Shown in pieces: positions 7,773 through 61,204 of a stretch of 64,000 nucleotides of DNA; within the stretch, counting starts at the first letter, position 1; each line of letters opens with the position of its first letter. This DNA is from Candidatus Woesearchaeota archaeon (GTDB lineage: Archaea > Nanobdellota > Nanobdellia > SCGC-AAA011-G17 > JACPNG01). Both the position numbers and the translations under genes were made by a program. The notes beneath the pieces are model-generated. The model saw nothing but the letters and a program-made list of their open reading frames with translations, was not told where the DNA came from and did not search any database. The DNA lies in assembly GCA_016185615.1 (NCBI GenBank), contig JACPNE010000008.1, positions 39,632-103,631 on the forward strand, given 5' to 3'.

Positions 7773-7835
7773 TGCTTTTTACAAGAATGAGTAGTGGGTT
7801 TCGCCTCTTTTACCCCATTACTCCTTGTGATAAAA

Positions 7836-8321
7836 ATGACAAAGAACAATACAGAAACTGAAAAAACAGTAGAAACAATAGGGAAAAATGATGAGATAGA
7901 AGAATTGACAGAAAGATTACAGAGATTACAAGCTGAATTTGATAATTATAAAAAATATGTTGAGAAAGAAAAACAAGAATTTGTAAAGTATTCTAATTAT
8001 AAATTAATTATTAAATTATTGGATACAATTGACAGCTTTGAATTAGCATTAAAAAACAAGGATAGTGGAGATGATTTTGTAAAGGGTGTTGAATTAATCT
8101 ATTCTCAACTATATTCATTATTAGAGAAAGAAGGAATAAGAAAAATAAAAGCATTAGGAGAAAAATTTAATCCTAATATTCATGAAGCATTGTTGACAGA
8201 AAAAGGGAATGAAGATAATCTAATTTTGGAAGAATTACAGACTGGTTATATGATTAATGATAAAGTATTAAGATATTCAAAAGTAAAAGTAAGCAAGAAT
8301 GTAGGGGGAGAAAATGAGTAA
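7836..8321 (+). CDS. grpE: Nucleotide exchange factor GrpE
   Basis: LQRLQAEFDNYKK, GEKFNPNIHEAL, LQTGYMINDKVLRYSKVKV; ATG at 7836 preferred over GTG at 7794. Confidence 0.96.
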   Translation: MTKNNTETEKTVETIGKNDEIEELTERLQRLQAEFDNYKKYVEKEKQEFVKYSNYKLIIKLLDTIDSFELALKNKDSGDDFVKGVELIYSQLYSLLEKEGIRKIKALGEKFNPNIHEALLTEKGNEDNLILEELQTGYMINDKVLRYSKVKVSKNVGGENE

Positions 8322-9240
8322 GATATTAAATAAAGAAATAATCTCCAAAATGAGTGAACTTAGAAGCAAAAATCATGATCTTAGAACTATAAAAAAAAAG
8401 ATTGGAGAGGAAAGATTAAAAGAGTTTTTTAATTCAATCTATCCCAAATTTACTATTACCGAAATAGAAAATATTACTGGAATCCCTGATTCTACTTTAG
8501 GATATTGGTTTAATAAATTAAATATACCATTTATAAGGCATCATATAATAACAAAAGCATATGCTGGAAATAGAGACTATGAAATTGTAGTTACTAAAGA
8601 TGGAATAATTTACAACTCTGCAACAATTAATATTACTCCTAAATTGGCTTATGTAATTGGATTTGCTTTGGGAGATGGTTCAGTTCAACAATATATGGTT
8701 GAAGTTTTTAATAAAGATAAAAAATTAAAAGAAGTTTTATTTGATTATTTAAAGTCATACGGCACAATAACAGAAGATACAAGAGAAAATGGTTTATGGA
8801 GATTAAGATTATCAAATGGAAGAATTGCAAATTTAATCAAAGATAAAAATGGGTTAAGAAAAGATACAATAGAATTTATTTTTAGTAATGATGAATTAGC
8901 AAAGAATTTTATTGCTGCATTTTGGGATGCTGAAGGTACTGTAAGAAAACAATACAATTTCATTCATATTTATTTATATAATTCAGACGACTATTTAATT
9001 AATAAAGTTTGTAAGTTTTTAGAATTTAAAGATATAACTTTTTCAATTTTAAAGAACAAAACTAGAAATAGAAAATATATTTTAAATGGAAGACAAGTTA
9101 TCTCAAGAAAGATATTAAAGAGAATTAGCATACCAAAATCTTCTCGTTTAAAATGGATTAAAGAGATAGGAATTAATCTTAACCATACAACAAAAAAAGA
9201 AGCAATAGAAGATATTTTAAAATTTAGTGGAGGTAATTAA
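8314..9240 (+). mobile_element. Free-standing two-motif LAGLIDADG endonuclease with N-terminal HTH
   Basis: LAYVIGFALGDGS and NFIAAFWDAEGTV motifs; TITEIENITGIPDSTLGYWF HTH; no intein splicing blocks seen. Confidence 0.85.
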
Positions 9241-9241
9241 A

Positions 9242-11077
9242 ATGGTCAAAATTCTGGGCGTGGATCTAGGGACGACAAACTCTGCGGCTTCAATAATACA
9301 AGCAGGACGTCCAACAATAGTTCCCAGTGCAGAGGGAGCATCATTATATGGAAAGGCATTCCCAAGCGTAGTAGCATTCCAGAAAGATGGGGCTGTTTTA
9401 GTAGGAGAGCCAGCTAAAAGACAGGCTGTTTCTAATCCTGAACAAACAATAATAGCTGCAAAGAGAAAGATGGGTTCTAAATTTAAATATAAAATAAACT
9501 CAAAAGAGTATACTCCCCAACAAATCTCAGCTTTCATATTACAAAAAATAAAAAGGGATGCAGAAGAATTTTTAGGAGAAAAAATCCAGAAAGCTGTAAT
9601 TACAGTTCCTGCTTATTTTGACGATGACCAAAGGCAAGCAACAAAGGATGCTGGCCAGATAGCTGGATTGGATGTAGTAAGAATAGTAAATGAGCCAACT
9701 GCAGCAGCATTAGCCTATGGATTAGATAAAAAAGACGGAGAACATAAGATTTTAGTATTTGATTTTGGAGGAGGAACTTTAGATGTCACAATAATGGAGT
9801 TTGGAGATTCTGTTTTTGAAGTCAAGTCCACATCAGGAGACACCCAATTAGGTGGGACAGATATGGATGAAACCATAATGAAATATATTATAAACAATTT
9901 TGAGAAAGAAACTGGAATTGATCTGAATGAAGATCCAACTGCATTGCAAAGGATAAGGGAAGCAGCAGAAAAAGCAAAGATTGAATTGTCAACAACTTTA
10001 GAGTCTGACATTAATCTTCCATTTATATCTGCAACCCAAAAAGGGCCAAAGCATCTTAATATAAAATTGACAAGAGCAGAACTAGAAAGATTAGTTGATC
10101 CGATTGTAAACAGATGCAAAAAGCCGGTTGAGCAAGCATTAAGGGATGCAAAATTAAAGCCAAATGAAGTAGATAGAATAATTTTGGTTGGTGGTCCTAC
10201 AAGAATGCCAATCGTAAGAAAACTTATAGAGGGATATATTGGAAAGCAAGCTGAGCGTGGAGTAGATCCTATGGAATGTGTCGCTATGGGTGCAGCAATC
10301 CAAGGGGGAGTATTAGCTGGAGAGGTAAAAGATATTTTATTATTGGATGTAACCCCATTAACATTGGGAATTGAAACTTTAGGTGGAATAAGAACCCAAT
10401 TAATACAAAGAAACACAACAATTCCAACAAAGAAATCCCAAACATTTTCAACAGCAACAGATAACCAGCCAGCTGTTACAATAAATGTACTACAAGGGGA
10501 GAGAGAAATGGCTTCAGACAATAAAAGCCTTGGAAGATTTGAGCTGACAGGAATACCTCCAGCACCAAGAGGGATTCCTCAGATAGAAGTCACATTTGAT
10601 ATTGATGCAAATGGAATCATAAATGTAAATGCTAAAGATTTGGGAACTGGAAAAGAACAGGCAATAAAAATAACAGCCACGCAAAAATTAAGTGAGGAAG
10701 AGGTAGAAAGAATGAGAAAAGAGGCAGAAGAACATGCTGAAGAGGACAAGAAAAGAAAAGAAATTATTGAAGTAAAAAATAATGCGGATGCTATTATTTA
10801 TACAACAGAAAAATTATTAGAAGAATATAAAGATAAAATTGATAATGAGACAAAAGATAAGATACAAAAAGAAGTTGATGGATTGAAAAAAGCAGTGGAA
10901 GAAGACAATATAGAAAAGATTAAAAAGAAACTGGAAGATGTCAACAAAGTTGCCCAAGAAATTGGTACAAAGATGTATCAAGAGGCTATGAAACAACAAA
11001 ACAATAAAGAAGAGAAGAAAGATGATAAAGACGATGCAGTAGATGCAGAAGTTGTTGATGATGAAGATAAAAAATAA
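9242..11077 (+). CDS. dnaK: Molecular chaperone DnaK
   Basis: [50 protein letters not shown]; GGAGGT upstream of the ATG at 9242. Confidence 0.98.
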
Positions 11078-12071: not shown

Positions 12072-12111
12072 AATTATCTATTTATAAAATTTTTCACCAA
12101 AAATAAATATT

Positions 12112-12260
12112 TCCCCGTTGCCGGATTCGAACCAGCAACCTCACGGGATCGGCTGACTTATTTTCATCCGGAGATAAGTTCTCAGTCGATAAGTGAACGC
12201 ATCTTTGGCCTGAATATTAGATTCATACAGCCGTGCGCTCTACCGTTGAGCTAAACGGGG
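12112..12260 (-). tRNA. tRNA-Tyr(GTA) with 77 nt of intervening sequence
   Basis: Acceptor CCCCGTT/AACGGGG, D arm GCTC/GAGC, anticodon stem CACGG/CCGTG, T arm GCTGG-TTCGAAT-CCGGC, discriminator A. Confidence 0.92.
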
Positions 12261-12307
12261 TTATAGAAAATTTAATAATCTTATATTAAAAATCTTTTGT
12301 TTTATAG

Positions 12308-13814: not shown

Positions 13815-14366
13815 CTAAACCCTTATAATCCTGGCTATCTTATTTGTCAAGTCTATGATTATTGATGGGTTCTCCTCAAGTTCTCCGGCATCTATTGCAA
13901 TATCAACTGATTTTTGAATTGTTCTAGGAACTTTTTTTATCTTTGTTATTGGCTCCTTTCCTGTTTTGTTTACAGATGTTGATATGAATGGGACTCCTGC
14001 TTTCTGTATTAGCTGTATAAAAGGGTGATTTGGAATTCTTACCCCTAATGTATCCAATCCAAGATTTACATCATAAGGAACAATTCTCTTTTTTTGTTTC
14101 AGAATAAATGTGAATGGCCCAGGCAATTTCTGGACATATTGCTTTTTTACATCAAAGTTTTTGTATATCCAATATTTATCATGAGCTATTATTGAGAAGG
14201 GTTTCTCGCTTCCTTTTATTTCCCTTATTTTTTTAACAGAATCCTCATTTAATGCATTACAGCCCAATCCATAAATTGTGTCAGTGGGATAGATAAATAT
14301 AGAGCCCATTCTTATATGATTGATAATCTCCCTCTCTTTTATTTTGTTAAATTCAATTATCTTCAT
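13815..14366 (-). CDS. L-threonylcarbamoyladenylate synthase, single-domain TsaC/YrdC type
   Basis: IYPTDTIYGLGCNA, LPGPFTFIL, LGVRIPNH, STSVNKTG. Confidence 0.92.
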   Translation of the reverse strand: MKIIEFNKIKEREIINHIRMGSIFIYPTDTIYGLGCNALNEDSVKKIREIKGSEKPFSIIAHDKYWIYKNFDVKKQYVQKLPGPFTFILKQKKRIVPYDVNLGLDTLGVRIPNHPFIQLIQKAGVPFISTSVNKTGKEPITKIKKVPRTIQKSVDIAIDAGELEENPSIIIDLTNKIARIIRV

Positions 14367-59911: not shown

Positions 59912-59995
59912 GTGGGAGTGCCGGAGTGGCCAAACGGGGTAGCCTCAAGAGCTACTGGCTTAGTGCCTACGCAGGTTCGAGTCCTGTCTCCCACA
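59912..59995 (+). tRNA. tRNA-Leu(CAA)
   Basis: GTGGGAG/CTCCCAC acceptor, GTAGC-CTCAAGA-GCTAC anticodon arm, long variable arm, GTTCGAGTC T loop; CCA not encoded. Confidence 0.96.
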
Positions 59996-60000
59996 CTAAA

Positions 60001-60519
60001 ATGTCAAAACTAGAAAGAATGATTGGTAATGTATTAATGGGATTTGGATTATTGTTTAATTCGCAGACTGCTCAAGCCATAGATAAAATTGAAACAAGGG
60101 GATTTATAGTTATAAAGGATCTAAGAACCGAAAAATCAGATTTATATTTTGATTATATAAAAGCAAGACTGAATCATCTAAGATTTCTAAAAGTAATTGA
60201 TAATAGCAAATTAGATAATGACAGTAAGATTAAGATTAAAAATACCATATTAAAAAGTTATGAAGACATTCTGGAGAAGGACCAAAAATCATCACATCTT
60301 TTGAGTGAAGTTGGGATAGTATTAATGGATTTTGATGATTATGAAAAAGCAGAAAGTTATTTAACAAATGCTTTAGAATTAAATTCCATGAATAGAGCAG
60401 CATATGAAAACTTAAAACAATTGTATCATATAACAAAACAGCCAGATAAGATAGAAGCATTAGAAGCAGGATATGGCTATAGATTTATTAAAGATGAAAA
60501 AAATATTAATAAGAAATGA
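60001..60519 (+). CDS. TPR-repeat protein
   Basis: VGIVLMDFDDYEKAESYLTNALELNSMNRAAYENLKQLY; ATG 5 nt after tRNA-Leu. Confidence 0.75.
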   Translation: MSKLERMIGNVLMGFGLLFNSQTAQAIDKIETRGFIVIKDLRTEKSDLYFDYIKARLNHLRFLKVIDNSKLDNDSKIKIKNTILKSYEDILEKDQKSSHLLSEVGIVLMDFDDYEKAESYLTNALELNSMNRAAYENLKQLYHITKQPDKIEALEAGYGYRFIKDEKNINKK

Positions 60520-61204
60520 TAAAAAGTATTACTGGAATGAGGGAGATCTTCATACAGAATCTGGAGTAATAAAAGAAGAAGATTTGAAGAAAGCAGTAAA
60601 AACAGTAAAAGCTCACTCTGGAAAGGAATTATTCGTTGCTCCAGCTCTGTTTATAGACAAGATTGAGAAGATAAAGAGAGACCCTCAAGCAATGATGGAA
60701 AAGGACATAGCAGTAATATTGACTTATACTTCAATAGATAAAGATTCTATTGTATTGGAAGCTGGAACTGGATCTGGAAAATTAACTTCTTTTTTGGCTA
60801 GAAATGTAAAAAAAGTTTATAGTTATGAGAAAAATAACGATAATATAAACTTAGCAAGGAAAAATTTAGAATTCCTAAATATAAACAATGTAGAAATAAA
60901 AAATAAGGATATATATGAAGGAATAGATGAAGAAGAACTTGATTTGATTGTTTTGGATTTGCCAATGCCTTGGAAAGCAGCAAAATATTGTTATGATTCA
61001 TTAAAACAAGGAGCATTTCTAGTTTCTTATCTTCCAAGCATTACCCAAGTAGTTGAATTTATGGATGAGATAAGGAGATATGATTTTTTAGTAATTAAAA
61101 CTGTTGAATTAATTGAAAGAGAATGGATTGTAGAGGGACAAAGAACAAGACCGAAATCTTCTTTACAGCATACTGCCTTTTTGACTTTTGTTAGAAAGCT
61201 TTAA
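60494..61204 (+). CDS. trmI: tRNA (adenine-N1)-methyltransferase, TrmI/Gcd14 family
   Basis: PQAMMEKDIAVI, VLEAGTGSGKLT, LDLPMPW, YLPSITQV, RTRP...HTAFLTF. Confidence 0.93.
   Translation: MKKILIRNDKKYYWNEGDLHTESGVIKEEDLKKAVKTVKAHSGKELFVAPALFIDKIEKIKRDPQAMMEKDIAVILTYTSIDKDSIVLEAGTGSGKLTSFLARNVKKVYSYEKNNDNINLARKNLEFLNINNVEIKNKDIYEGIDEEELDLIVLDLPMPWKAAKYCYDSLKQGAFLVSYLPSITQVVEFMDEIRRYDFLVIKTVELIEREWIVEGQRTRPKSSLQHTAFLTFVRKL

Follow-up and report, generated by a model that had tools for sequence, protein, structure and literature searches.

For multiple, nested introns in archaeal pre-tRNAs, the sources cited are Sugahara et al. 2007 and Tocchini-Valentini et al. 2009. In such nested archaeal pre-tRNAs, according to excerpts of two papers, the last intron's bulge-helix-bulge (BHB) motif forms only once its fellow introns are processed (PMC3728597, PMC3978253). 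The strict form of the motif, hBHBh′, is defined in an extract of PMC4090602 by a 4-bp central helix with two 3-nt bulges on opposite strands, and its two cuts each follow the second bulge base. Archaeal tRNAs with as many as three introns are described in extracts of PMC3239211 and PMC4090602, together with relaxed BHB motifs that are cut by some types of splicing endonuclease. Two introns in close proximity are reported in an excerpt of PMC3239211 for the pre-tRNA-Pro(GGG) of ARMAN-2, where adjacent introns occupy positions 53/54 and 59/60 of the T-loop.

The tRNA-Tyr(GUA) gene described here lies in a 64,000-nt stretch of DNA (the window) with a GC content of 30.5%, an archaeal SRP RNA and many ORFs without a Pfam family. 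As far as the excerpts of the above sources go, it resembles the nested pre-tRNAs of the Crenarchaeota (Thermoproteales) in having several BHB introns, a last BHB that has to wait and repeated cycles of cutting and ligation, which in this case are predicted. It differs from them in that its genome is DPANN-type, in that the extra intron lies inside the anticodon, 2 nt from the canonical intron, and in that the outer helix of the extra intron is partly made from the neighboring one. Within the same limits of the source, the ARMAN-2 pre-tRNA-Pro(GGG) offers the parallel of a DPANN archaeon with two BHB introns, there both strict, close together in one loop. Its introns, however, lie 6 nt apart in the T-loop and are not described as mutually dependent, whereas those of the window gene lie 2 nt apart in the anticodon loop and share central-helix bases. 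The principle is not new, as archaeal tRNA introns that are nested and ordered have been published before; possible novelties here are the lineage, the placement within the anticodon and an exon of 2 nt, for none of which was a description found in the literature searched, which is weak evidence. A literature search for 35/36 or 36/37 introns likewise returned nothing relevant, and is weak evidence because the slash notation is not searchable. We consider it probable (about 0.72) that the window carries a functional tRNA-Tyr(GUA) gene with two enzyme-spliced introns, 2 nt apart in the anticodon loop, that would be removed in a fixed order; the host would be an AT-rich archaeon of DPANN type, Woesearchaeota-like to judge from the closest tRNA relative. 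The features of the locus, in window coordinates and with ^ marking predicted cuts, are the following.

12281..12290, minus strand: TATA-like box UUUAAUAUAA, 21–30 nt upstream of position 1 (sequence), its spacing suggesting a promoter role
12112..12260, minus strand: tRNA-Tyr(GUA) gene, 149 nt, with 72 nt of exon and 77 nt of intron (Rfam, sequence)
12227..12260, minus strand: 5′ exon, tRNA positions 1–35, ending ...CUGU (predicted BHB1 cut after the second bulge base)
12205..12226, minus strand: putative intron 1, 22 nt, strict hBHBh′ at 35/36 (BHB1, alignment with relatives)
12203..12204, minus strand: predicted micro-exon AG (A36, G37), between the BHB1 3′ cut AA^A and the BHB2 5′ cut AG^A
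12148..12202, minus strand: putative intron 2, 55 nt, canonical 37/38 position, relaxed BHB (homology to the L063 intron, BHB in the spliced intermediate)
12195..12201, minus strand: UGCGUUC, 5′ segment of intron 2, pairing with exon GAGCGCA (12240–12234) as the BHB1 outer helix (fold, sequence)
12156..12194, minus strand: kink-turn-like module of intron 2 (pattern scan, covariation count)
12150..12153, minus strand: GCCG, 3′ strand of the BHB2 central helix, with C32–U35 (12230–12227) (fold, relatives)
12112..12147, minus strand: 3′ exon, C38 to A73, CCA not encoded (sequence)
12100..12108, minus strand: T-rich run UUUAUUUUU directly after A73 (sequence), a likely terminator

The Rfam tRNA model RF00005 matches exactly 12260–12112 on the minus strand, with 53.7 bits against a gathering threshold of 29, and leaves approximately 80 nt unaligned in the anticodon loop. 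The difference between the 149 nt of the gene and the 72 nt of its exons sets the extra sequence in the loop at 77 nt, in agreement with an earlier description based on the letters alone (the sequence-only reading), which had recognized a tRNA-Tyr enlarged by this amount. The gene at 12260–12112 was missed by ARAGORN, whose sole report in the window is the tRNA-Leu at 59912–59996. The archaeal tyrosine identity set, given in an excerpt of PMC9976931 as A73, C1-G72 and G34 U35 A36, is present in the sequence, with A36 being supplied by the micro-exon after splicing; the D-arm and T-arm are normal and the exons are intact. The gene occupies an intergenic gap with ORFs of the same strand on both sides, and the TATA-like box and T-rich run at its ends suggest that it is expressed.

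The comparison with related loci carries most of the weight for two introns. A collection of genomes was scanned with a pattern extending from the D-arm to the anticodon, which returned at least 120 stretches; the window's own genome is absent from the matches listed. Among these matches, 74 loci are archaeal-type (C1 C2) and 46 are bacterial or unclassified, and 67 archaeal-type genes could be parsed, the window included, 66 of them with an intron. In 64 of these 66 parsed intron-bearing genes among the matches listed, G37 directly follows GUA, and a G is found at the same place in 8 unparsed archaeal-type loci; the only two exceptions listed are the window gene, with U, and L097, with A, both of which feature an extra BHB hairpin and then the G. 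The central helix formed by C32–U35 is fully paired in 44 of the 66 genes listed and shows a single mismatch at U33 in 14, including the window. The closest relative among the matches listed is L063, whose label is Candidatus Woesearchaeota; it agrees with the window gene in the acceptor stem and the T-stem, and has exons identical to those of that gene at 65 of 72 positions and a single intron that agrees with 12202–12148 in 39 of 61 alignment columns, the 22-nt insert being the only large difference between the two genes. In a MAFFT alignment, the same 22 nt appear as an insertion with respect to 11 single-intron relatives, absent from 11 of the 12 aligned relatives. The window gene is hence an L063-type gene with 22 nt added just before A36-G37, and the comparison supports homology of its 3′ 55 nt to the canonical 37/38 intron of the relatives. 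Alignment with the listed archaeal-type tRNA-Tyr loci is thus favorable to the two introns advanced in the sequence-only reading.

These data also bear on the simplest alternative, a single 77-nt intron, which would be excised from a relaxed canonical BHB on the precursor (CUGU/GCCG, bulges AU^G and AU^C) to leave the loop CUGUAUC with U37. The precursor does offer the 3′ half-site that it needs, GCCG AUC with the anticodon stem behind it, and the 14 listed genes with a mismatched helix indicate that the endonuclease of this family evidently accepts it. It would, however, put a pyrimidine at the position that is G37 in nearly all parsed relatives listed, and the sequence-only reading had rightly called such a U37 atypical. 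Its conformer is, in addition, 10.6 kcal/mol less stable than the one with BHB1, and it leaves unexplained both the precise BHB1 and its preservation in L097 with another hairpin sequence. A single intron is therefore a most improbable reading of the gene.

Under the two-intron reading, BHB1 comprises a central helix of GGCU (12232–12229) with GGCC (12210–12207), the bulges GUA (12228–12226) and AAA (12206–12204), a 5-bp inner hairpin UGAAU/AUUCA (12225–12221 with 12215–12211) and a slightly irregular outer helix consisting of C29:G37, one bulged A and then 7 bp. Intron 1 thereby presents a 4-bp central helix, two opposite 3-nt bulges and both flanking helices, as in the strict hBHBh′ form. 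Each element proposed from the sequence alone, including the pairing of UGCGUUC in the intervening sequence with exon GAGCGCA as outer helix, was found in its place within the unconstrained minimum-energy fold of the gene (−50.8 kcal/mol, z −2.53; a fold this stable is reached by 2 of 200 shuffles). Cleavage after the second bulge bases would remove 12226–12205 and join ...CUGU to AG..., the register read from BHB1 being 35/36 (U35^A36), inside the anticodon. The excision of these 22 nt between positions 35 and 36, as first suggested, consequently gains in silico support from the strict BHB1 and from the relatives. Intron 1 begins with A and its 3′ cut is likewise followed by A, so that calling the insert 36/37 would not alter the product. 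Among dinucleotide shuffles of the insert, a strict BHB whose inner helix has 5 bp or more occurs anywhere in the gene in 2003 of 5000, one with its 5′ cut in the anticodon loop in 314 of 5000, and one that also restores GUA plus a purine in 52 of 5000 (approximately 1%); on its own, the BHB1 motif is suggestive rather than decisive, and it is the comparative data that carry the two-intron case.

Among the matches listed, the two-intron layout of the window recurs in one other genome, L097, on a 1814-nt contig labelled Micrarchaeota. Its BHB combines a central helix GGCU/GGCU and the bulges GUA and AAA with a 5-bp inner helix, AGAUA/UAUCU, that differs in sequence from that of the window, and its 29-nt intron 1 is followed by AG and by a second intron ending in GUCG AAA. 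L097 is not scored as a tRNA by the Rfam tRNA model, and the sequence parse, in which 7 of 7 acceptor pairs are formed and the D- and T-arms are intact, points to its identity as a tRNA-Tyr. The first introns of the window and L097 resemble each other more than expected by chance (4 of 5000 shuffles), with no detectable overall similarity between their second introns (2090 of 5000) and none supported between intron 1 and intron 2 of L097 itself (3109 of 5000). The helix matching the BHB1 outer helix is longer in L097 and measures 5 bp in L063. Given that L097 shares intron 1 even though its exons differ from those of the window more than the L063 exons do, this intron either disappeared from the line leading to L063 or was transferred from one lineage to another. 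A search with the pattern GGCTGTA..GGCYAAAG matched L097 and L035, and the L035 match was discarded upon hand inspection, as it falls in an inner hairpin and has no BHB. No further copies of intron 1 were found in the window at up to 3 mismatches, and an origin of intron 1 by duplication from the 3′ end of its neighbor is unsupported, with 1217 of 5000 shuffles scoring equally.

The L097 parallel weighs as well on the notion that the 22-nt insertion disabled an L063-type gene, leaving a pseudogene with a BHB-like shape produced by chance. Roughly one in a hundred shuffled inserts yields an equally good motif and the view of the genome is confined to the 64-kb window, both of which leave room for this notion. 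It sits poorly, however, with intact exons that retain all identity elements and normal T- and D-arms, with a TATA-like box and T-run in place, with the conservation in L097 of the splice geometry under different hairpin bases, and with the presence in the outer helix of a C27:G pair where L063 has U.U. On this balance, we regard a pseudogene as quite unlikely.

Removal of intron 1 in silico generates, at the canonical position, a second motif, BHB2, that excises exactly 55 nt (12202–12148), with a CUGU/GCCG central helix in which U33.C is unpaired, flanked by the bulges AG^A and AU^C; the part of the outer helix is played by the anticodon stem. Three of the four central-helix pairs are formed, short of the strict 4-pair form, and BHB2 is for this reason relaxed, in a pattern common to the 14 of 66 listed genes with the same mismatch; its contiguous inner helix spans only 2 bp. 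In the spliced intermediate, intron 2 lies one base 3′ of the anticodon and has C32–U35 in its central helix, as befits a canonical 37/38 intron, and it scores 56.9 bits with covariance model R1, of whose training set it is a member. The sequence-only reading had been unable to build a clean BHB for the second intron; the relaxed motif that forms in the spliced intermediate supplies the missing structure.

The predicted cuts, G37^A...U^C38, would produce a mature loop CUGUAGC, in which C38 rather than A38 follows from the BHB cutting rule. In the version put forward in the sequence-only reading, intron 2 falls instead at 38/39 (12201–12147), with a micro-exon AGA and the loop CUGUAGA. Its appeal stems from A38 being the commonest base, since the base before position 39 is A in 60 and C in 7 of the 67 parsed genes among the matches listed, and from the fact that 5 of the 7 listed C-ending genes have an intron starting with A, so that a one-base shift would also yield A38 in them. 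The cuts that it requires, GA^U and UC^C, however, are devoid of a helix, with the shifted UGUA/CCGA forming one of four pairs when assessed by hand, and the same shifted rule would give L016 and L092 a G38 or U38. Relatives with perfect central helices, such as L012, end in C (GCAG AAC), and C38 therefore does occur in the group. The 38/39 placement is for these reasons distinctly improbable, and the BHB register, together with the C38 relatives, moves the borders of intron 2 one base 5′, to 12202–12148, and replaces the restored loop CUGUAGA by CUGUAGC. Of the 2–3 nt micro-exon envisaged at first, the tiny exon endures and its length becomes 2 nt (AG, 12204–12203).

The pairings AUCG/CGAU, CUG/CAG and ACUUAU/AUAAGU, previously noted for the 55-nt segment, exist in the sequence but differ from the fold that relatives conserve. 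Intron 2 has two copies of ACUUAU (12194–12189 and 12179–12174), and either copy can pair with AUAAGU at 12161–12156. The conserved fold uses the first copy (12194–12189), and pairing of the second (12179–12174), adopted in the sequence-only reading, may represent an alternative conformer. Another strict BHB-like site inside intron 2 (central helix CUGA/UCAG, bulge GAA, 29 nt, 12179–12151) was ruled out, as it has no outer helix, yields a nonsense product, would take away a portion of BHB2 and relies on the second ACUUAU, which is not conserved.

The structures of the two motifs bear directly on the order of splicing. The central helix of BHB1 uses G30–U33 and that of BHB2 uses C32–U35, and because the overlap, C32–U33, is common to both, BHB1 and BHB2 cannot coexist. 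Furthermore, the 5′ bulge of BHB2, made up of A36, G37 and the first base of intron 2, is assembled in silico only by the first ligation, so that removal of intron 1 would have to come first. BHB1, in turn, draws its outer helix from exon positions 22–29, paired with G37 and the opening bases of intron 2. The gene hence displays in silico the hallmark of nested pre-tRNAs, with a last BHB that forms only once the other intron has been removed, and the overlapping central helices and the relatives lend in silico support to the original proposal of two interdependent introns spliced in order. Folding energies, which are naked-RNA estimates that ignore tertiary structure and proteins, place the BHB1 conformer of the precursor at −49.6 kcal/mol, versus −39.0 when the unspliced RNA adopts the cloverleaf and a canonical BHB; for the intermediate, nearest-neighbor folding favors a retained exon-intron helix (−44.9) over the cloverleaf with BHB2 (−33.7).

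In the pathway that we infer from these structures, the precursor would fold into BHB1, with its central helix at G30–U33 and its outer helix drawn from exon positions 22–29 and the start of intron 2. The splicing endonuclease would then cut at U35^A and AA^A36, and a ligase would join the ends, with release of the 22-nt intron. A36 and G37 would thereby come to adjoin C32–U35, allowing the relaxed BHB2 to form (CUGU/GCCG, with the anticodon stem outside), and cuts at G37^A and U^C38 would release the 55-nt intron to yield a 72-nt tRNA with the loop CUGUAGC. No match to the EndA family was detected at 1e-5 among 47 window ORFs, comprising those of at least 150 aa and one of 116 aa, nor when the 19 of them lacking any hit were rescanned at 0.05.

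Intron 2 contains, beyond its splice motif, a module that is shared with many other long tRNA-Tyr introns. The module pattern consists of a stem, S1, of varying sequence, with GA just inside its 5′ side and RRUGA just inside its 3′ side; in the window, S1 pairs 12194–12189 with 12161–12156 and encloses the inner GA (12187–12186), a hairpin, S2, and GAUGA (12168–12164). Rigid kink-turn templates, which matched no more than 4 of 66 and 5 of 71 introns, were replaced by this looser pattern and a covariation count. The pattern is found in 21 of the 32 introns of at least 45 nt among the matches listed, versus 685 of 9600 shuffles. Besides the window, it occurs in L012, L013, L015, L035, L038, L045, L054, L056, L057, L063, L072, L078, L080, L083, L084, L086, L087, L090, L101 and L119, loci with Woese-, Pace- and Nanoarchaeota, Thermofilales, Ignicoccus and Nitrososphaerota labels. 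In a 12-sequence alignment, 80.8% of the cells of S1 and S2 are paired, a value that none of 500 shuffles reach, both bases differ in 12 of the 13 module pairs, and sliding the register lowers the value to 29–44%. Beyond its training set, model R1 recovers only L087, L072 and, weakly, L016; at E up to 1 it recovers none of the loci of other phyla, whose membership in the module is suggested by the pattern scan. Neither the scan nor R1 detects the module in L097. Intron 2 resembles the canonical 37/38 introns found in the tRNA-Tyr genes of relatives from the Woese-, Pace- and Nanoarchaeota (L063, L054, L012 and L078 among others) in its position, its U33-mismatched helix and its S1/GA/GAUGA elements, and differs from them in that its 5′ splice-site bulge is interrupted by intron 1.

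The geometry of the module resembles a kink-turn, with the closing pair, the 3-nt loop and the GA in register and one extra base between GA and S1; the literature searched yielded no description of a kink-turn module in tRNA-Tyr introns. Box C/D guide RNAs feature terminal C and D boxes plus guide complementarity, with CUGA as the D box. A full box C/D RNA in intron 2 was considered and rejected, given that it has no 5′ C box, ends in CCGA and returns no Rfam C/D match at E up to 1. S1 does not suggest itself as a guide either, as its sequence changes from species to species and that of the exons stays constant. Intron-encoded C/D RNAs are described, in excerpts of the sources, only for archaeal tRNA-Trp and for the tRNA-Met of N. 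equitans (PMC4090602, PMC3491384, PMC7994747). As far as those excerpts show, intron 2 is akin to them as a long canonical intron with GA and UGA elements of the kink-turn type, and departs from them in lacking a terminal C box and in having CCGA, not CUGA, at its 3′ end. It is possible, though doubtful, that the long tRNA-Tyr intron of loci with DPANN, Thermofilales, Ignicoccus and Nitrososphaerota labels is an ancient L7Ae-type kink-turn RNP module rather than a passive spacer, which would help to fold or modify pre-tRNA-Tyr or survive as a stable excised RNA. In this tentative scheme, a possibly mobile BHB mini-intron would have been inserted here into the 5′ splice-site bulge, imposing an obligatory two-step pathway around a 2-nt exon.

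The arrangement has implications for gene annotation and for the study of tRNA splicing. Small DPANN genomes appear to hold undetected disrupted tRNA genes (PMC5829648), and with ARAGORN missing the window gene and Rfam not scoring L097, such genes would be counted as missing tRNA-Tyr in small DPANN genomes. The gene represents a compact natural substrate for ordered BHB splicing and for the minimum exon length of endonuclease and ligase, and it illustrates in silico how a neighboring intron can supply a helix of the splice motif of another. Among the matches listed, the occurrence of intron 1 in L097 and not in the closer relative L063 also bears on the gain, loss or transfer of introns at splice-site bulges.

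Other observations concern the wider set of tRNA-Tyr loci and the remainder of the window. Five DPANN-type tRNA-Tyr genes (L057, L038, L036, L112 and L005) show an apparent further intron in the T-loop besides the canonical one, and multi-intron tRNA-Tyr genes seem common in this group. In L080 (labelled Thermofilaceae), the insert after GUA presents two candidate 3′ splice sites and one shared 5′ site, with a BHB excising 60 nt followed by 21 nt more that end in UUAG AAA; the arrangement could be tandem or nested, or else a single intron of 81 nt. Woese/Nanoarchaeota-type tRNA-Tyr introns were also found in L084 (on a contig labelled Sedimentibacter sp.), L012, L038 and L087 (labelled Methanosarcinales), contigs that may be mis-binned or carry unreliable labels. 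In the window, genes for tRNA modification lie near both tRNA genes: an ORF of the Sua5/YrdC family (13815–14366, minus strand) approximately 1.5 kb upstream of the tRNA-Tyr, and a GCD14/TrmI-like methyltransferase (60473–61204, plus strand) just after the tRNA-Leu(CAA) (59912–59996, plus strand). A 308-aa ORF (8314–9240, plus strand) with a LAGLIDADG_3 match (E 5.4e-12) lies between grpE (7794–8321) and dnaK (9227–11077), overlapping both, and looks like a homing-endonuclease-like gene in a chaperone operon. Lastly, L003, L028 and L040 carry group I introns right after the D-arm-to-CTGTA pattern (RF00028, 58–107 bits, 3 of 3 tested), and some 20 more of the bacterial loci listed have, judging by insert length, group I introns of about 200–270 nt, the group I loci being found on records labelled Patescibacteria, Saccharibacteria and a cyanobacterium.
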